NCBI GenBank assembly: GCA_036507075.1
Contig: DASXQR010000010.1
Span: forward strand, 26,485 to 90,484
Source of the DNA: Acidobacteriota bacterium
GTDB lineage: Bacteria; Acidobacteriota; UBA6911; JACQSX01
Reading direction: 5' to 3'
Length of the DNA stretch: 64,000 nt
Made by a program: the position numbers and the translations under genes
Notes under the pieces: generated by a model
What the model was told of the DNA's origin: nothing
The model's database searches: none
What the model saw: the letters and a program-made list of their open reading frames with translations, nothing else
Shown: positions 860 through 52,839 of the stretch, in pieces
How the letters are laid out: every line of letters begins with the position of its first letter
Numbering within the stretch: the stretch's first letter is position 1

Positions 860-1306
860 ATGACACCGTTACGGCAACGGATGATTGAGGATATGCAGTG
901 CATCGACAACGACCAGGTCACCTTTCGTTATCGCGATAATCGCTGCCAACAGATGCGCTCAGTCAAGCTGCCGGCTGTCGAGTTTATTGGCCGCTTCCTG
1001 CAGCATGTACTGCCGCGCGGTTGTGCCAAGGTGCGCTACTACGGAATCTGCAGTCCTTCCTGCCGCAAGCAACTGGATCAGGCGCGCACTCTGCTAACGG
1101 TACCCATCGACCACTCCCAGTCCACTCCCATCGCGCCCTCCCCCGAGCCACCCGGAACCGCTCCACCGCTGTCCCCATTGCCACATCGGACAGTTCATCA
1201 TCATCGAGATGATCCGTCCGCAACGTATCTACCCTCCATGACATCGCCATTGAACCCATGCGCTCTATCCTGTTGGGTCTGCCATCCTGGGCCGCCATGC
1301 GAGTGA
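860..1306 (+). pseudogene. IS91-family (Y2/HUH rolling-circle) transposase C-terminal remnant. Homology is confined to roughly 860-1090.
   Basis: ..[47 protein letters not shown].. resembles the conserved C-terminal region of IS91/IS801 transposases (..[21 protein letters not shown]..). There is no N-terminal HUH domain, and the gene is in opposite orientation to the cassettes. Confidence 0.55.
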
Positions 1307-2717: not shown

Positions 2718-3763
2718 TCATCTCCGCGTCGCTGCCACCACGTCCCGAATCGCAGTAACCACGATGTCAGGCTGCGAGATCAGAATCTCATGGCCGCTGT
2801 GCCGGGCGATGACCTGCTTGCCGGCGCTCGATAGAGCCACCAACGCCGCCTGGTTTCTCTTGTGCTCATCTTCACTCACGCGGCCCTCCGGACCTTCATT
2901 TTCGGGAATCCCTCGCGACAGCACGATAAGCGGCATGTCGCCCAAGGGATGTTCCTTCTTGCCTTGCTGGGCGAGCATGGCCGCCAGCTCTTCACCTTCG
3001 AACGGGTTGTCATTGGTTGCCCAGTGCTTGATTTGCGAGAACGCCCATGCGCGCATGCGCTGGGCTTCGGCTGGAAGCTTGTTGCGTGGCGTGTCGTTCG
3101 CGTGCGGAGCCATCTGCCGGACAGCCGCTTCAATCTGACTTCGGATGTTCCCGGTAAGGTCGCTTTCGCGCAGTGGATCCGAGGTCTTGACCGCCGGGAT
3201 GGGTCTTCCAGTTGCGGTCTCCACCAAGCGGACCATGCGGCTATCTCTGAAGACCGCCACACCACTTTCATGGCCACTCTCCTCGAGTACCATGCCACCG
3301 ACCTCCGATGGATATGTGAAAGCGTAGAGGCGAGCCAATATGCCACCGTACGAGTGCCCCACAAGCACATAAGGAGGCCGAACGCCAGTCTTCTCGAGGA
3401 CGGCATGCACTCCCACACGACCTGGCGCAACGTTCGTGGGCGTGGACCCAGGTCGCTCCAACCGAGCCCGGCGCGATCGTACGAACACACGCGCGCGAAG
3501 CGGGCGACTTCTGGCTGGACGAGACTCCAATCCACCGAGAAACCACCGGCCCCGGCTTCGAGGATGACAGTCGGCTGTGACGCGCTGACCTGGCCCGTGC
3601 AATTGAGGTGGACTCGCCACCCGCCGAGATCTACTAGCTGGCCGGGCGCAGAAATGGGTGGCGAACTGGGTGGTGTCTGGGCTGTCGCCGGCATCGAAAC
3701 CCAGATGAGCAGAACGGCTGATATCGGCACCAGCAATCGACACCAAGCGAGCGTTTGTTGCAT
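2718..3763 (-). pseudogene. Secreted alpha/beta hydrolase, frameshifted
   Basis: The signal peptide and N-terminus (MQQTLAWCRLLVPISAVLLIWVSMPATAQ..GWRVHLNCTG..VILEAGAGGFSVDWS..) are in the frame of ORF 2876..3763. The catalytic part (..PYVLVGHSYGGILARLYA..) is in the frame of ORF 2718..3746. The shift is near 3430. Confidence 0.65.
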
Positions 3764-3785: not shown

Positions 3786-3812
3786 ATGTCGCGGCCTTAA
3801 TTCGTTAGGCGT
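3786..3812 (-). repeat. Truncated attC-like site (GCCTAACGAATTAAGG...). It shares its first 16 nt with the full site at 1-130 but lacks the distal half.
   Basis: Exact 16-20 nt identity with the 114-133 region. It directly abuts the start codon of the hydrolase pseudogene. Confidence 0.4.
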
Positions 3813-4044
3813 CTCCACCGAACAGCTCTACAAGGAGACGTTCAGCTTCTTGAAGACCCTGTTCGGTGAACACAACTGATTTTGCCTTGCCGACAGGGTC
3901 TGAGATATATCCCTTTTCGTGAAGGCGCCTCATTGCATCCCAATCAAAGCCTTTCCACGCTCGATTATCTTCATGCAGCCCAAGAACGAGCAGCGCTAGA
4001 ACTGCACGATCGATCTTGTCTGTATTGAGTTTCATTTCTTTCAA
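3805..4044 (-). CDS. DUF6429-family small protein
   Basis: ..DKIDRAVLALLVLGLHEDNRAWKGFDWDAMRRLHEKGYISDPVGKAKSVVFTEQGLQEAERL.. matches the conserved pattern of DUF6429 proteins. Single-gene cassette. Confidence 0.65.
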   Translation of the reverse strand: MKEMKLNTDKIDRAVLALLVLGLHEDNRAWKGFDWDAMRRLHEKGYISDPVGKAKSVVFTEQGLQEAERLLVELFGGDA

Positions 4045-4056
4045 TAAATGCCAGAT

Positions 4057-4120
4057 GCCTAACGCTCGCGGTCAGCCGCGGTGGGTGCGCTCGAGTGCGA
4101 CTTCGCTGCTATCCCCCCGT
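4057..4120 (-). repeat. Degenerate attC-like site (GCCTAACGCTCGCGGTCAGCCGCGGTGGGTGCGCTCGAG...)
   Basis: RYYYAAC core followed by imperfect palindromic arms related to the long class. No clear GTTRRRY end. Confidence 0.3.
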
Positions 4121-4507
4121 CCCACTGGCGGCTGCACCGCGTCCTTGGGCGGCAGCCAAGCCTTGCTGCGGAACCAATCGCCTATTGACCACATATTGCA
4201 AGTAGAAGATTCCAAAGAAGAACACCGCCATTACAGATAGGGGGGTCTGAGCCTGAATGCTCCTCAGCGGGCTCTGGGGATCCTGAATCCTCCTCAAATG
4301 GGACAAGTGAGACTCCAGAATACGGCTCACCTTGAAGCATTGTACGATCAAGGTGATCCCTGCAGTGAGTTGCAACAGTTTTGTTACAAGGTTGACGGAT
4401 TGAGAGGCGTCAACCTCGCCAGCGCCCTCAAGAGCGCCTAAAAGCCAGTAAAGAATAAGGTTAATGCTGAGTATAACTATCGCGAACACGAATGGCCCAA
4501 CTCCCAC
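4109..4507 (-). CDS. Hypothetical small membrane protein (2-3 predicted TM helices)
   Basis: ORF with hydrophobic N- and C-terminal segments. It is co-cassetted downstream of the zinc-ribbon protein, and its 3' end runs into the attC-like site. Confidence 0.4.
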   Translation of the reverse strand: MGVGPFVFAIVILSINLILYWLLGALEGAGEVDASQSVNLVTKLLQLTAGITLIVQCFKVSRILESHLSHLRRIQDPQSPLRSIQAQTPLSVMAVFFFGIFYLQYVVNRRLVPQQGLAAAQGRGAAASGTGG

Positions 4508-4567: not shown

Positions 4568-4771
4568 CTAAATGCTGGCCGTGATGATGACGAGCAAAAT
4601 GGTCAACAGGATACTCTGTCTCCTTAGCGTCGGCGATTCCGTGTCAGTATTTGGGCCGGCGTGTGGTGCAAGTGGAGTGCTGTTATGAAGGGCTGTACCG
4701 CACTGCCCACAGTATTTCGTGCCGTCCTGGAGGCTGGCTCCGCAATGTGTGCAGTACATAGGTTCCTCCAA
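4568..4771 (-). CDS. Zinc-ribbon domain protein with C-terminal transmembrane anchor
   Basis: CTHCG..(x10)..CGQCG double CxxC zinc-ribbon at the N-terminus and a hydrophobic tail (ILLTILLVIITASI). Confidence 0.55.
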   Translation of the reverse strand: MEEPMYCTHCGASLQDGTKYCGQCGTALHNSTPLAPHAGPNTDTESPTLRRQSILLTILLVIITASI

Positions 4772-4835
4772 CGATAGATTTCAGGCGTCCGATCGGCATC
4801 AGCGGCGCGGTTTGCCGTCTGCTGCATGCGTCAGG
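4768..4835 (-). repeat. Short hairpin repeat (GGCATCAGCGGCGCGGTTTGCCGTC). Second copy of the attC-related short class also seen at 7690-7735.
   Basis: ~30 nt near-identical to 7699-7730. The palindromic core resembles the GGCATCAGCCGCGCG arm of the long attC class. Confidence 0.3.
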
Positions 4836-4869
4836 CAGCACCCGATCGTGTGGTCGGAGGGTAGTATAT

Positions 4870-6402: not shown

Positions 6403-6493
6403 GTCTAACGCCGAGGCATCAGCCGCGCGCCAGGAAAATCTGTCAGTCCAAGGGAATCGCGGTGGCGCGTCGGCTGCATGCCCGTGGTTAGCT
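6403..6493 (-). repeat. attC-like site, long class (GTCTAAC ... GGCATCAGCCGCGCGCC ... GCGGTGGCGCGTCGGCTGCATGCC ... GTTAGCT). Read on the minus strand, R' = GTTAGAC.
   Basis: Conserved arms shared with 692-780, 1498-1590 and 7165-7249. On the cassette coding strand it is a canonical R''(xGCTAAC)...R'(GTTAGAC) arrangement downstream of the DUF2442 gene. Confidence 0.6.
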
Positions 6494-6513: not shown

Positions 6514-6810
6514 TCATGCCTGTACTAAATCCCATCTTCGAGCACGGGCGGTCAACGCTTCGACAAATTGCGGCCAGTCGTGTAACGTGGCTGGATCAAA
6601 GTCGGCGCCACTGGGCCAAACCAATGTGTGAACCTCAGGATCAATCCGAACCTGATTGAAGAGCGACAAGTCACGCAACGGTTTGTATAGCTCGCCTGCC
6701 AAAACCGGCTCCAAGTTGATCGTCTGCTCGGTATTGTCATCGAATTGGACACGCACCGTGTAGGGCGCCACGATTTCAAACGACTCGACACGATAGATTG
6801 GGTGAATCAT
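6514..6810 (-). CDS. DUF2442 domain protein
   Basis: ..YRVESFEIVAPYTVRVQFDDNTEQTINLEPVL..LRDLSLFNQVRIDPEVHTLVWPSGADFDPATLHDW.. is the typical DUF2442 pattern. Paired with DUF4160. Confidence 0.8.
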   Translation of the reverse strand: MIHPIYRVESFEIVAPYTVRVQFDDNTEQTINLEPVLAGELYKPLRDLSLFNQVRIDPEVHTLVWPSGADFDPATLHDWPQFVEALTARARRWDLVQA

Positions 6811-6820
6811 TGCTTATCCG

Positions 6821-7090
6821 TTATTTGAGCGGGTCGATCGGTAAGGGCTTCCGGCCCACTTGCAACCTTTGCCAATCGGTGACTAATTCCGATTGGTGTA
6901 ACTCCGCCCAAGCCTCAACTAAGCGTTGTTGCCGTTTGGGCAGTGAACCAGCGATCAACTCGATTGGATCAATGCTATAGATCCCCACACCCTCCTGATA
7001 GTACGCGTGAAAATGTGGTCTATGGTGTGGCGTCTCTGCCTCCGCATACATGCGAATAATGATACCGAAAAACCGGCTGATTTCTGGCAT
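6821..7090 (-). CDS. DUF4160 domain protein
   Basis: MPEISRFFGIIIRMYAEAETPHHRPHFHAYYQE.. is the canonical DUF4160 N-terminus. It lies immediately upstream of the DUF2442 gene, a known two-gene module. Confidence 0.8.
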   Translation of the reverse strand: MPEISRFFGIIIRMYAEAETPHHRPHFHAYYQEGVGIYSIDPIELIAGSLPKRQQRLVEAWAELHQSELVTDWQRLQVGRKPLPIDPLK

Positions 7091-7164: not shown

Positions 7165-7249
7165 AGCTAACGCTCAGGCCCGCGCGCCAGGAAATCTATC
7201 AATCCCAGGGAATCGCGGTGGCGCGGCGGCTGCATGCCGGGGGTTAGGC
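7165..7249 (-). repeat. attC-like site, long class (AGCTAAC ... GCGGTGGCGCGGCGGCTGCATGCC ... GTTAGGC)
   Basis: The conserved right arm and both core motifs are present. The left arm is degenerate (CTCAGGCCCGCGCGCC instead of GGCATCAGCCGCGCG). Confidence 0.6.
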
Positions 7250-7313: not shown

Positions 7314-7613
7314 TTAGGGTGTGTTAGTCCTTTGAATCCGAGTCAATCTCATGGACTTTGAAAACTCCAACATATAAATGGGCTCTCCGGTCTTCAGATT
7401 GCTTGTTTCAACGCCAGCTGGGGAAAAGACGACGAAGAGACCGTCACTATCGGGCGTGCTACTGTAGGCATCGTGTGGAACTGTTTCCTGGAAACTCTTG
7501 AAAGTCATACCCAACTGCAATGTCCTCCCGACCCATCGCTGTACGCGCCGGCGATGCTTGTAGAGAACGTAGATGCCCCGCATCCCACGCGGAAGAGCGT
7601 TAACGTTCTCCAT
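7314..7613 (-). CDS. Hypothetical cassette protein with a weak GIY-YIG-like N-terminal motif
   Basis: 99-aa ORF. ..RGIYVLYKHRRRVQRWVGRT.. is reminiscent of the GIY..(x9-11)..YIG motif. No further confirmation is possible by eye. Confidence 0.3.
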   Translation of the reverse strand: MENVNALPRGMRGIYVLYKHRRRVQRWVGRTLQLGMTFKSFQETVPHDAYSSTPDSDGLFVVFSPAGVETSNLKTGEPIYMLEFSKSMRLTRIQRTNTP

Positions 7614-7689
7614 TGGAACGAATTCTTCACGGCGCTTGAGCCGAAGTGGACTTATGATCGCTTTGATTTTCTCAGCAACCTCTCAGAGC

Positions 7690-7735
7690 CGCCCAACGCC
7701 CGGCATCAGCGGCGGCGCGGTTTGCCGTCCGGGAT
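7690..7735 (-). repeat. Short hairpin repeat (GCCCAACGCCCGGCATCAGCGGCGGCGCGGTTTGCCGTCCGGG), attC-related short class
   Basis: RYYYAAC core plus a palindrome CCCGG...CCGGG. ~30 nt shared with 4775-4810. Confidence 0.3.
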
Positions 7736-7885
7736 TGAAGAGCTGCACAGATATCGGGCAAGCACACGGTGACGTGGAGAAGGCACCAGTACGCTTTGCC
7801 AGCACGACATCGGTTCATGTCTTCCCAGTAGATAGTAAAGGCGGAAGACAGCGTTCCTTTCTGCAACATCTAGTTCCTCAGCGCC

Positions 7886-8035
7886 GCCTAACTTTAAGTA
7901 AATGTCGCAAATTATAAGGCTATTACGCCGTGTAATCAACGTGGGACCCACAGTTCCAGTTGCAATCTATGAACGGATGCGGATAGATATACGGCGTGTG
8001 AAATTTTTTGGTGCCAGGCCTGGCGACGAAGTTTC
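7886..8035 (-). promoter_or_regulatory. Putative attI / integron promoter region. Core GTTAGGC (minus strand, 7892-7886) sits at the first cassette boundary, and the AT-rich segment contains candidate -35/-10 hexamers (TTGCAA ...18 nt... TAGATA) facing the intI remnant.
   Basis: Position between the intI remnant and the first attC-bounded cassette. The GTTRRRY core is oriented as expected for attI. Confidence 0.35.
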
Positions 8036-8038
8036 TCT

Positions 8039-8254
8039 GTGCCTGAACTGCTGGAGCAGGCGCGCGATTTGATCCGCGTCAAACATTACAGTGTCGGGAC
8101 CGATCAGGCGTACCTGCGATGGATCAGAGAATTCATAACGGTGCAGGAATTACTGGGGCACAAAGACGTCAGCACGACGATGATTTACACCCATGTTCTA
8201 AATAGAGGAGGGCATGGGGTTCGCAGTCCAATCGACTTAATTTCAAAGCTGTGA
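8039..8254 (+). pseudogene. intI: Integron integrase (IntI, tyrosine recombinase) remnant. An in-frame internal deletion leaves N-terminal ~33 aa fused to C-terminal ~38 aa.
   Basis: [30 protein letters not shown] aligns with the IntI1 N-terminus ([33 protein letters not shown]). [35 protein letters not shown] aligns with the IntI1 C-terminus ([35 protein letters not shown]). The RHR/box I-II region and the integron-specific insertion are missing. Confidence 0.85.
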
Positions 8255-8264
8255 TCCAAACATC

Positions 8265-9980
8265 ATGTCCGGGGAGATTTCAATGAAGAAGTATTACCGC
8301 CTGCTTGGCTTCCTGCTTGCATTTCCTGCCGTATTGGGCTTTCTTGGCGCGCCGGAGAAGAAGGTTTATCCCTATCGCTGGGTGCGCGTCAGCAGCGGGC
8401 TGAGAGACGATGCGGAAGTCGAGCGCGTCCGCAAGATTGTCCAGGCGGCCTCCGGGCACGGGCTGAACGGGATCGCGCTTTCGGCGGGCCTGGATCAGCT
8501 CGATATGAAGCAGCCCGAATATTTTCGACGACTGGAGCAAGTGCGGCAGATATGCGCCGAGGCCAAAGTCGACGTCATTCCGTCGTTCATGTCGGCCGGA
8601 TACGGCGGAGCCGTCCTGGCACACGACAAGAACCTGGCCGCCGGGCTTCCGGTGCGCGACGCGCTGTTCGTTGTTCATGAAGGCAAGGCCGATTTTGCCG
8701 CCGATCCGGCGGTGAATCTTGAAAACGGCGGTTTTGAAGGGACAAAAGAGGGGCTGCCCATGTCATGGCGTGTGGCCCAGCCCGGGACCGCCTCGATTGA
8801 TACGGCTGTTTTTCATGAAGGCAAATCCTCACTGCGATTCCACAATCTGGAAGATCCAAGACAGCCGGCGCGCGTCAGCCAGACGGCGCGGGTCCGCCCC
8901 CACCGCTGCTACCGGGTCAGCTTCTGGATCCGCACCGAAAGCCTCGGCGCGTCGGATCCTTTCGGCTCGGGCAACGTCCAGCTCGATGTGCTGGGAGGCG
9001 AGGAGAAACGCCCGCTTCAGTACGAAAATCCGCGTTTTCCCAACGACGATCAGTGGCACCGCGTCGCAGTCGGATTCAACAGTTGGGGATATGACAGGGC
9101 CGACATCTCGCCGAAAGTCCGGGGCAGCAAAGGCGGCACAGTCTGGATAGACGATTTGCGAGTCGAAGAAGCCGGCCTGGTTAATCTGCTGCGCCGCGCA
9201 GGGACTCCGCTCGTGGTCCGCGGCGAATCGAACAGCACCGTGTATGAAGAGGGGCGCGATTTTGCGCCGGTGTCTGACCAACGGCTGAATTTCCGATACG
9301 ACCATGACGGGCCATCCATTCAGATTCTCCCGGGCAGCCGCATCGTGGAAGGAGAGCGCCTGCGCGTCAGTTTTTTCCACGGAACAAACATTTACAACGG
9401 CCAGACTCCGGTATGCATGTCCGAGCCCAGGCTGTACGAAATCTGGCGCACCCAGGCGCGCCTGGTACATCAGGCGCTCGCGCCGGGAAAGTACCTTCTC
9501 AATATGGATGAGATCCGTACCGGAGGATCGTGCGAGGCGTGCAAAAAGCGAGGCGCGACGATGGGCCAGATCCTGGGCGACTGCCTCACAAAACAGGTCA
9601 ATCTGCTGCGGGAAGTGAATCCGAAAGCGGAGATTTTTGTCTGGTCGGACATGCTCGATCCCAATCACAACGCCAATCCAAACAAGAAGTACTATTACCT
9701 GGCGGAAGGGATTTTCACCGATTCATGGAAGCATGTCCCCAAAGACTTGAACATCGTCTGCTGGTATTACGAGAAACGGGCCGAGAGCCTGCGACATTTC
9801 TCGAACCTCGGCTTTCGCACCGTTGCGGGCGCGTATTACGACGCCGATAATCTCGACAACCCGCGCGGCTGGCTCGAATCGCTCGACGCGACTCCCGGAG
9901 CGGCGGGAATCATGTATACCACCTGGTTGAACAAATACGATCTGCTGCCCGGGTTTGGCGATCTTGTTTCGGGCCGCTGA
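8265..9980 (+). CDS. Secreted hypothetical protein with a central CBM4/9-like carbohydrate-binding module, possibly a glycoside-hydrolase-like protein
   Basis: Signal peptide (KKYYRLLGFLLAFPAVLG). The central ..NLENGGFEG...WIDDLRVEE.. block resembles CBM4_9. Coding-like codon usage over 571 aa. Confidence 0.55.
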   Translation: MSGEISMKKYYRLLGFLLAFPAVLGFLGAPEKKVYPYRWVRVSSGLRDDAEVERVRKIVQAASGHGLNGIALSAGLDQLDMKQPEYFRRLEQVRQICAEAKVDVIPSFMSAGYGGAVLAHDKNLAAGLPVRDALFVVHEGKADFAADPAVNLENGGFEGTKEGLPMSWRVAQPGTASIDTAVFHEGKSSLRFHNLEDPRQPARVSQTARVRPHRCYRVSFWIRTESLGASDPFGSGNVQLDVLGGEEKRPLQYENPRFPNDDQWHRVAVGFNSWGYDRADISPKVRGSKGGTVWIDDLRVEEAGLVNLLRRAGTPLVVRGESNSTVYEEGRDFAPVSDQRLNFRYDHDGPSIQILPGSRIVEGERLRVSFFHGTNIYNGQTPVCMSEPRLYEIWRTQARLVHQALAPGKYLLNMDEIRTGGSCEACKKRGATMGQILGDCLTKQVNLLREVNPKAEIFVWSDMLDPNHNANPNKKYYYLAEGIFTDSWKHVPKDLNIVCWYYEKRAESLRHFSNLGFRTVAGAYYDADNLDNPRGWLESLDATPGAAGIMYTTWLNKYDLLPGFGDLVSGR

Positions 9981-10270
9981 TTTGCGCGGAATTGCGCGGA
10001 TTGATATCGGCCGCCGATTTACGCGGAATTGCGCGGATTGATATCGGCCGCCGATTTGCGCGGACTGCGCGGATTGATATCGGCCGCCGATTTACGCGGA
10101 ATTGCGCGGATTGATATTGGCCGCCGATTTGCGCGGACTGCGCGGATTGATATCGGCCGCTGATTTGCGCGGACTGCGCGGATTGATATCGGCCGCCGAT
10201 TTACGCGGAATTGCGCGGATTGATATCGGCCGCGGATTTGCGCGAAATGCGCGGATTGACATCAGGCCGC
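9979..10270. repeat. Tandem repeat, about 8 units of 36-37 bp (GATTTRCGCGGAMTTGCGCGGATTGATATCGGCCGCC), each unit containing the palindrome ATCGGCCGCCGAT
   Basis: Strict head-to-tail periodicity between the stop of the upstream gene and glyA. Alternating unit variants (TACGCGGAATTG / TGCGCGGACTG). Confidence 0.9.
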
Positions 10271-51045: not shown

Positions 51046-52839
51046 CTACTTAGGAATCATCCAGGGGAAAACGTAGGCCTGCAGCAGCACAATCAATCCC
51101 ATGATGCAGGCCAGGGCGACTGAGTGCCAGAATACAAAACGCAGGATTGCTCCCTCATGACCGCTCTGGTTGGTAGCCGCCGTGCTCACCACGATACTTT
51201 GCGCGTCCACCATCTTGCCCATTACCCCGCCGGTGCTGTTGGCGACAGTGATCAGGACCGGATCCAGAGAAAGCTGCTGGGCCGTGATCTTCTGCAGGCT
51301 TCCGAACAGAACGTTGCTGGAGGTATCCGAGCCGGTCAGCGCCACGCCCAGCCATCCGAGCAGCGCGGCAAAAAACGGGTACGCCACTCCGGTGTGAGTG
51401 AATGCCAGACCCAGCGTCGCATCCGTCCCGCTGTAGCGCGTGACATACCCGAGCGCCAGCATGCAGGCGATGGTCAGCAGCGGCCACTTCATGCGGACCA
51501 GCGTTCTTCCGGCCACGCGCGCCAGAATGCGCAGCCGGATTCTCAAATATAGGGCGGTGGCCAACGCAGCCACGAGAATTCCCGTGCCTGAGGCGCTCAG
51601 CCAATTGAAGCTGTACACGGCAGCTTCGGCGTTTTTCTGGCGATAAGGGCCGCTTCCGATTTGACCTCGATCAATCTGAACCGGAACTACGGGAAAGTCC
51701 CGGTACACCATTTTATGCAGCAGCGGCACCTGGATCTGCGGACTGAGCGCCGGGTTCGGCGGACTTGGTTTTCCGGTGGCGCGATAAGCGCGCAAACTGG
51801 CCGGACCGCCATTCAGAAAGGCCTTCACCGGAGGCAGGCCCCAGCAGAAGACGAAAACGCTCAGAAACACCCAGGGCATCCACGCTTTTACAACCTGCCC
51901 CCGCGAATAGGTTGCCGTCTCAGAGGATCGGCTCGCCGGCATCGCCCGGGCCGGAACCGGGACATTCGGCGCCGCTGCATTTGCGTCCGGCATCTTATTA
52001 AGATTCTCCGGAAATTCCCAATTGTCTTTTGGCTTCCACCAGGCTGCAAATCCCGCCGTGATAAAGAGACTCACCAGCCCCCCCAGGATGTCCACCAGCT
52101 CCGGACCAACGTAATTACTCCAGAAAAACTGAACCACAGCGAAGCTTCCACCGCTGACAAGCACCACCGGCCAGACGCCCTTGAAGCCTTTCCAACCGCT
52201 CATGGTCACGACCAGCCAGATCGTCACCAGCAAAGAAACAAACGGCAACTGCCGGCCTGCCATCTGTCCCAGAATGAAGGGGTCCTGCTGGGTCACGGCG
52301 GCCAGCGTGAGAATTGGAGTTCCGAGGGCGCCAAACGCCACGGGCGCCGTGTTGGCGATCAGGCAAAGACCGGCGGCATAGAGCGGCGGGAATCCCAGGC
52401 CCATCAACAGCGCCGCGCAAATGGCAACAGGTGTTCCAAAGCCGGCGGCGCCTTCGATAAACGCGCCAAAGCTGTAGCCGATCAGCAGCGCCTGCACGCG
52501 GCGATCCGCCGACAGCGATGCCACCGAATGCTTGATGATTTCAAACTGGCCGGTTTCCACCGTCAGGTTGTACAGGAAGACGGCCGTGATAATGATCCAG
52601 CCGATCGGAACCAGGCCAAATGCCGCTCCATAACCGGCCGAGGCCAAAGCCGTGGCAGCAGGCATTCGATAGAACACAATCGCGATCAGCAATGCAGCAG
52701 CCAGGCCACTCATCGCCGCCCACTGCGCCGGCACTTCAAAAGCAGCGAGCAGGACGAGCAAAACCACGATTGGCAGCGCCGCCAGCAGCGTGGAAATTAC
52801 AGCGTTACCTGCCGGATTATAAATCTGGATCCATTCCAT
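51046..52839 (-). CDS. lctP: L-lactate/glycolate permease (LctP family)
   Basis: MEWIQIYNPAGNAVISTLLAALPIVVLL.. / ..GYSFGAFIEGAAGFGTPVAICAALLMGLGF.. are hallmark LctP motifs. ~14 TM helices. Confidence 0.92.
   Translation of the reverse strand: MEWIQIYNPAGNAVISTLLAALPIVVLLVLLAAFEVPAQWAAMSGLAAALLIAIVFYRMPAATALASAGYGAAFGLVPIGWIIITAVFLYNLTVETGQFEIIKHSVASLSADRRVQALLIGYSFGAFIEGAAGFGTPVAICAALLMGLGFPPLYAAGLCLIANTAPVAFGALGTPILTLAAVTQQDPFILGQMAGRQLPFVSLLVTIWLVVTMSGWKGFKGVWPVVLVSGGSFAVVQFFWSNYVGPELVDILGGLVSLFITAGFAAWWKPKDNWEFPENLNKMPDANAAAPNVPVPARAMPASRSSETATYSRGQVVKAWMPWVFLSVFVFCWGLPPVKAFLNGGPASLRAYRATGKPSPPNPALSPQIQVPLLHKMVYRDFPVVPVQIDRGQIGSGPYRQKNAEAAVYSFNWLSASGTGILVAALATALYLRIRLRILARVAGRTLVRMKWPLLTIACMLALGYVTRYSGTDATLGLAFTHTGVAYPFFAALLGWLGVALTGSDTSSNVLFGSLQKITAQQLSLDPVLITVANSTGGVMGKMVDAQSIVVSTAATNQSGHEGAILRFVFWHSVALACIMGLIVLLQAYVFPWMIPK

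Follow-up and report, generated by a model that had tools for sequence, protein, structure and literature searches.

Pseudogenes make up about one-third of intI genes, and some of them carry major deletions (PMC2426708). An active IntI imposes a cost and is rapidly inactivated (PMC3510236), which provides a selective rationale for integrase loss. The evolved intI1 null alleles of Starikova et al. 2012 (PMC3510236) lost function through early frameshifts and kept their cassettes. In Xanthomonas, intI genes with large deletions are found, with common lesions alongside identical arrays, as summarized from Gillings et al. 2005 in bioRxiv 10.1101/2025.06.18.660453 (see also Nemergut et al. 2008, PMC2426708). 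As defined by Cury et al. 2016 (PMC4889954), a CALIN has at least two clustered attC sites and lacks a protein able to match Pfam PF00589 together with the IntI-specific profile. A pseudo-intI was detected near 15 of 279 CALINs in that study, by a screen needing >50% coverage of either profile; it and the survey of Nemergut et al. both recognize a pseudo-intI by its IntI-specific domain or by coverage of 50% or more of a profile (PMC4889954, PMC2426708).

Here we describe an integron locus in a 64-kb stretch of DNA (64,000 nucleotides; "the window", to which all coordinates refer) from an uncultured Acidobacteriota-like bacterium. A short ORF beside a cassette array appears to be the leftover of the integron's own integrase gene, an intI pseudogene that lost its interior, probably in a single event. 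We assign this reading a probability of roughly 0.88. The locus resembles the Xanthomonas pseudogenes in combining a large deletion with a kept array, and in the association of one inactivating lesion with an identical array, across isolates there and across assemblies here. It differs from them, as far as those sources describe them, in that the deletion is in frame, removes 78% of the codons and leaves the termini alone, and in that no intact allele is known in relatives of its uncultured host. Apparent loss of function with cassettes kept is shared with the intI1 null alleles, although a large in-frame deletion takes the place of their early frameshifts. Several attCs with apparently no protein able to match both profiles would also place the array among CALINs, but here a recognizable intI remnant persists at the expected place.

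The ORF (8039–8254, plus strand), delimited from the ORF listing and by homology, starts with GTG and comprises 71 codons and a stop at 8252–8254. Residues 1–33 (8039–8137) cover the start of the SAM-like N-terminal domain, with residues 4–33 equivalent to residues 6–35 of full-length IntI, and residues 34–71 (8138–8251) aligned with full-length residues 286–323. The two parts meet at ATA|ACG (8137–8138, Ile33|Thr34), where 750 nt (250 codons) are absent relative to relatives. LLGH (H41), IYTHV (Y50) and the IntI-type tail NRGGxGVxSPxD are all retained in the C-terminal part. The NCBIfam "integron integrase" model TIGR02249 matched the ORF in two stretches (E = 5.8e-21, 75.2 bits), the second covering profile positions 281–313 of 315. 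The IntI1-type model NF011946 gave 2e-18, compared to 1.8e-7 for XerC and 1e-6 for XerD; XerC reached 31 bits against 75 for TIGR02249. Pfam Phage_int_SAM_4 was matched by residues 4–35 (profile 1–32 of 85) and Phage_integrase (PF00589) by residues 34–54 (profile 149–169 of 172, i.e. the last 21 positions), the latter at 24.6 bits with a gathering score of 27.1 and coverage of 21/172 positions. The best match to a solved structure (phmmer against the PDB) was Vibrio cholerae IntIA (VchIntIA; 2a3v, 4.3e-13), placing ORF residues 5–33 on chain positions 6–34 and residues 31–66 on positions 283–318 of 320, with H41 and Y50 aligned to positions 293 and 302.

A preliminary description of the DNA had divided the ORF into ~33 N-terminal and ~38 C-terminal IntI residues, naming alignment to VchIntIA as a check and absence of similarity to the IntI termini as grounds for rejection. 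Both ends of the ORF matched VchIntIA and TIGR02249 significantly, and the division was correct by profile, structure and tblastn matches alike. The termini are thus closer to IntI than to XerC or XerD, with the tail aligned to position 318 of 320 in 2a3v, and the plus-strand remnant is divergent from the minus-strand attCs and cassette ORFs directly upstream, as expected of an intI by descent. Its score of 75.2 bits is below the curated TIGR02249 cutoff of 265. Exact-sequence look-ups of the 71-residue product with a Met start, and of the 571-residue neighboring protein, returned no match; the 71-residue product is on record with a Val start (P0001).

A metagenome scan seeded with the 71-residue product yielded 80 related loci. 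Among the 58 related metagenomic intI loci in which both parts were located, about 45 had them exactly 750 nt apart and in the same frame. Two full-length relatives tested on TIGR02249 scored 487 and 483 bits (cutoff 265) and are bona fide IntI. The higher-scoring one (L037, 325 residues) was used as tblastn reference against the whole window: its residues 6–35 matched 8048–8137 and its residues 286–323 matched 8138–8251, abutting and in one frame, with no further intI fragment in the 64 kb. The remnant therefore lacks the 250 codons, and the lost piece has not been relocated within the window.

The deleted interval corresponds to residues 36–285 of the reference (~35–285 in VchIntIA numbering). 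Inside it lie the HxxR motif (HTLRHSFATHLL) seen in full-length relatives and their IntI-specific patch ALxRKYPxAxxxWxWQYxFP. Going by general knowledge of the tyrosine recombinase family, the interval presumably also took in the arginine of box I and the lysine of the active site. Of the complete catalytic set (Arg, Lys, His-x-x-Arg, His/Trp, Tyr), only the positions for His (293) and Tyr (302) are left. Three to four of six catalytic residues and 78% of the codons are gone, and the segment bearing the IntI-specific additional domain, near patch III, is deleted. Alignment to the relatives and to 2a3v thus bore out the preliminary proposal that the RHR residues and the IntI-specific domain were lost and the tyrosine motif kept. 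Compared to VchIntIA and IntI1 (2a3v, TIGR02249, NF011946), the first ~30 and last ~38 residues of the integrase are represented, whereas residues ~35–285, and hence the catalytic core and additional domain, are not. The remnant would be unable to bind or cut attI or attC, since the rest of both domains, the catalytic residues and the IntI-specific domain are missing, and it is most readily seen as a dead recombinase.

The DNA on the left side of the remnant has the appearance, throughout, of a cassette array on the minus strand; the preliminary description had likewise spoken of a cassette array. The array measures ~9.6 kb in total, with ~25 gene calls and at least nine attC-like sites within the window; on an overlapping JGI contig it runs ~1.8 kb past the window start and then gives way to non-cassette genes. 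Four minus-strand attCs form a homogeneous family (7165–7249, 6403–6493, 1506–1590 and 692–779), ~81% alike and ~85–90 nt long, of the form GCCTAAC...GTTAGGC and with imperfect-hairpin folds. Their scores with covariance model R1 (79, 88.8, 102 and 90.7 bits, respectively; 79–102 bits in the plus-strand reading and ~16–22 bits on the opposite strand) are circular, as R1 was built from these four sites, and the model is too sequence-specific for heterogeneous attCs. The other minus-strand sites are a short, weak attC-like site at 7691–7740 (R' = GTTGGGC), which has a 23-nt block in common with 4797–4819; an imperfect hairpin CTCCAAC...GTCGGAG at 4766–4859; a site at 4057–4154 (R' = GTTAGGC, 16 bits with R1); a short attC of 61 nt, GGCTAAC...GTTAACC, at 2171–2231; and an attC of 130 nt cut by the window start (1–130). 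The list of sites was curated by hand: a scan for RYYYAAC/GTTRRRY cores with folding returned nothing with strict cores, and when loosened also gave false matches inside ORFs. No Rfam match near the remnant locus was found at gathering scores. Read on the minus strand, every site presents a GTT-type R' core (GTTAGGC, GTTAGCC, GTTGGAG, GTTAGAC, GTTAGCT or GTTGGGC), with R'' cores less regular, a pattern consistent with leftward transcription of the cassettes.

Between the sites lie small minus-strand ORFs of typical cassette content. They include genes for DUF4160 (6821–7090) and DUF2442 (6514–6810) proteins, two ParE toxins (125–424 and 1603–1914), an Unstab_antitox antitoxin (421–678), an alpha/beta hydrolase (2718–3746), a DUF6429 protein (3805–4044) and a zinc ribbon protein (4568–4771), all on the minus strand. 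On the opposite strand within the array, a 148-residue ORF (860–1306, plus strand) matches only positions 125–180 of 183 of a Y2 (IS91-family) transposase profile, and probably represents a piece of a transposase. Two exact copies of a 21-nt sequence, CCTTAATTCGTTAGGCGTCTC, occur at 115–135 and 3795–3815. The first copy forms the R''-side arm of the attC at 1–130; the second, overlapping the DUF6429 stop codon, has no arm to pair with and looks like a truncated attC.

An AT-rich spacer (7893–8038), a putative attI and promoter region, separates the remnant from the first cassette boundary. A minus-strand GTTAGGC core at 7886–7892, 147 nt from the remnant start codon, is the likely attI/first-cassette recombination point. 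The spacer contains an 11-nt imperfect direct repeat, ACGSCGTGTRA, at 7925–7935 (ACGCCGTGTAA) and 7991–8001 (ACGGCGTGTGA), copies of which could be accessory integrase-binding or regulatory sites. A sigma-70-like sequence, TTGATT-17-TATAAT, on the minus strand at 7911–7939 is a candidate Pc by consensus match only (10/12); it was the one such match in 7600–8400, where 0.6 were expected, and is directed into the cassettes, the placement anticipated for a cassette promoter.

Genes for a 571-residue CBM-domain protein, GlyA (glyA) and a helicase-like ORF flank the array on its right, and CarboxypepD_reg and Sortilin-like genes flank it on the left on the JGI contig. Flanking genes on both sides suggest that the element is chromosomal. 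Set against the criterion of >19 attCs for sedentary chromosomal integrons, the ~9.6-kb array has at least nine, four of them alike (~81%). A 37-bp tandem repeat (9972–10270; 8.2 copies, 90% matches, consensus GGCCGCCGATTTGCGCGGAATTGCGCGGATTGATATC) separates the 571-residue protein gene from glyA. Elsewhere in the window, an Rfam group II intron match (RF00029, 52961–53033, minus strand; 42.5 bits, gathering score 40) lies between a lactate permease gene (51046–52839) and an ORF that matches BNR weakly, and no reverse-transcriptase domain was found in the three scanned ORFs adjoining it. GC content falls to 0.47–0.51 over 53–55 kb of the window.

The identical junction was recovered from three other metagenome assemblies. 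JGI contigs encoding the same 71-residue product were 99.98% identical to the window over 9.5 kb (3300036861) and 99.94% identical over 6.9 kb (3300036860), and a Logan contig (SRR11742962) was 100% identical over 9.1 kb, junction included. This recurrence indicates that the junction is not an assembly artefact. A sequencing or assembly gap at this position, which the preliminary description had named as a possible undoing of its claim, was not seen: there are no Ns at the locus, and the N- and C-terminal parts have no common repeat able to collapse an assembly. The sole array difference relative to JGI contig Ga0376049_0006472 was a 1-nt indel at 718, in a C run of the attC at 692–779; a C to T difference at 9398 is outside the cassettes.

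An intact orthologue at the same locus had been proposed as a means of dating the deletion. A scan of genome contigs with the 571-residue neighbor returned 30 loci, the best matches being Acidobacteriota MAGs at up to 69% identity, and no adjacent intI was found at any of them. Neither the metagenome scan nor a protein search of all representatives yielded a close full-length relative (best identity 60–68% over 71 residues). These searches recovered no intact orthologue, and synteny was uninformative as to the age of the deletion.

At breakpoints equivalent to the junction here (REFI|TVQ), the 35 full-length relatives had only 0–2 nt of identity, so a microhomology-mediated origin is unsupported, judged from these relatives in place of the true ancestor. 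A different junction, HYSIRT|VQELLGH, recurs among public IntI fusions (P0078; P0091, Leptolyngbya O-77; P0092, Sulfuricella; P0106; P0110; P0113), as does FL|THLLE (P0005, P0008, P0016, P0071, P0102, P0115). Direct repeats of 6–10 nt flank the HYSIRT|VQELLGH breakpoints in 5/35 full-length genes, whereas random in-frame pairs had their 95th percentile at 3 nt, making recurrent slippage at this site plausible from sequence comparison. Derivation of the present remnant from that hot spot, which would require a parental direct repeat of at least 6 nt, was rejected on account of its different junction and the 0–2 nt of identity at the equivalent breakpoints.

The remnant itself has no stop or frameshift, and its C-terminal part is fully consensus, albeit relative to a comparison set picked by C-part similarity and hence biased. 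In the N-terminal part, G20, D22 and E31 occupy positions where at least 91% of the 35 full-length relatives have R, E and R, respectively, and the substitutes are absent from those relatives. Overall deviation of the N-terminal part was not significant against these relatives (z = -1.5). Intact frame, consensus C-terminal part and z value together amount to no clear sign of neutral decay in the ORF. Such a pattern agrees with a loss in the fairly recent past and some slight relaxation since, without proving it.

Together these observations suggest the following history. An ancestral intI of ~320 codons would have stood divergent from attI and a minus-strand cassette array. Loss of 750 bp from its interior, most simply through a single illegitimate deletion that used little microhomology, if any, would have brought codons 35 and 286 together, by chance in frame. 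Of the N-terminal DNA-binding domain the product would keep ~30 residues, and of the C terminus the last ~38, including the final histidine and the tyrosine nucleophile. No integrase encoded at the locus could then rearrange the array, which would count as a CALIN, while the candidate promoter (7939–7911) may continue to drive transcription of attI-proximal cassettes. The CALIN assignment is in keeping with the clustered attCs (four at 79–102 bits, a circular score, and at least four more that are structurally attC-like with RYYYAAC/GTTRRRY-type cores). On the integrase side, PF00589 reached 24.6 bits (<27.1), the intI_Cterm region is absent by alignment, and there is no other intI in the 64 kb.

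That the array is frozen is plausible, as judged from 64 kb. Cassettes might nevertheless be excised and inserted by an intact IntI from another part of the genome: the R' cores of all recognized attCs and the attI-like core are intact, and ~20% of integron-bearing bacteria have more than one intI (PMC2426708). We consider such rescue in trans unlikely. The window contains no second intI, and cassette order is the same in four assemblies from at least three samples, which is weak evidence because the assemblies probably represent one population.

Less likely still is a gap assembled from several successive smaller deletions. Intermediates of this kind do exist, about 10 of the 80 related loci having internal deletions of 20 to 240 codons. 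In the remnant, however, no unalignable residues stand between the two abutting parts and the loss is exactly the modal spacing, and several events summing to an in-frame, scar-free loss would be less parsimonious. Given this abutting alignment and a loss of exactly 750 nt, one deletion event is the parsimonious choice. The single in-frame deletion of ~250 codons put forward in the preliminary description therefore stands as to size and frame, with its single-event origin a matter of parsimony of which the frame is no proof.

We also considered whether the in-frame fusion could be a selected micro-protein that poisons or regulates full-length IntI made elsewhere, or binds DNA. In tyrosine recombinases, the C-terminal segment past the tyrosine packs on the neighboring subunit, and a free copy of it could therefore disturb this contact. 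In-frame IntI N/C fusions are numerous in public data, some of them in complete isolate genomes (P0002–P0253; also the metagenomic loci L033, L039, L045 and L080), and the remnant's own intact frame and consensus C-terminal part would suit a selected product. However, these fusions range from about 57 to 290 residues with junctions at dozens of positions, and their lengths are continuous from 60 to 290 residues, indicating no preferred architecture. The retained part of either domain is also probably too small for known folds. In the sample ranked by C-part similarity, out-of-frame internal deletions (L049, L070, L075 and others) were at least as frequent as in-frame ones (L033, L039, L045 and L080), and several more of the 80 loci are frameshifted. 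Internal intI deletions being common both in and out of frame, an intact frame is no evidence of function, and protein searches see in-frame fusions only, an ascertainment bias.

The lengths returned by such searches require similar care. A first, word-indexed protein search returned only fusions of up to 123 residues; it is length-biased, and no frequency was drawn from it. An overwhelming excess of miniature IntI was entertained as a candidate pattern and rejected, as an exhaustive search gave a length continuum up to 464 residues at similar scores: its best 150 representatives span 60–464 residues continuously, with 23/150 of at least 300 residues. Clustering inflates the number of variants among protein representatives, from which frequencies are accordingly not readable.

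Codon comparison also bears on the micro-protein proposal. Over 52 codons, P0092 (Sulfuricella denitrificans skB26) and P0106, both with the IRT junction, show 24 synonymous and 4 non-synonymous codon differences. The same pattern is equally expected from selected full-length orthologues that later lost the same segment at the IRT repeat. The two mini-intI ORFs (L120:4001–4201 and L121:1355–1561) have ~114 nt of conserved upstream sequence and differ in their adjacent cassettes, which fits independent late deletions. Independent late hot-spot deletions in orthologous genes are thus favored over selection on the mini-ORFs. Taken together, a selected role for the present ORF seems a long shot, and it is just as doubtful that some IntI N/C fusions persist as selected small proteins, possibly interfering with full-length IntI. 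Finally, an assembly or sequencing artefact (a collapsed or chimeric contig), or descent from a non-integron tyrosine recombinase such as Xer, may be dismissed, given the identical junction in three assemblies from different pipelines without Ns or a collapsing repeat, the IntI score of 75 bits against 31 for XerC, a tail that reaches the end of VchIntIA, and the correct placement beside attI and attCs.

An intI gene emptied of its interior is accordingly our preferred reading, and the remnant is an instance of ordinary intI decay in a very clean form. Annotation pipelines would call the array a CALIN and the ORF "hypothetical" or "integrase". The remnant would fail the screen of Cury et al. 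2016, as it has no IntI-specific region and covers 21/172 PF00589 positions, and its array would be counted with the 95% of CALINs described as "without recognisable intI pseudogene" (PMC4889954). Remnants consisting of the two termini of intI would thus be invisible to published pseudo-intI screens, a point that is mildly new. That intI pseudogenes of this N/C type are widespread, and lie behind some "orphan" CALINs, is more likely than that they are selected proteins. For the bacterium, the ~9.6-kb array with its ~25 cassette genes is most likely a fossil beyond the reach of its own integrase. For integrons at large, local integrase loss may have produced a larger share of CALINs than has been estimated, since many remnants in public data evade these screens.
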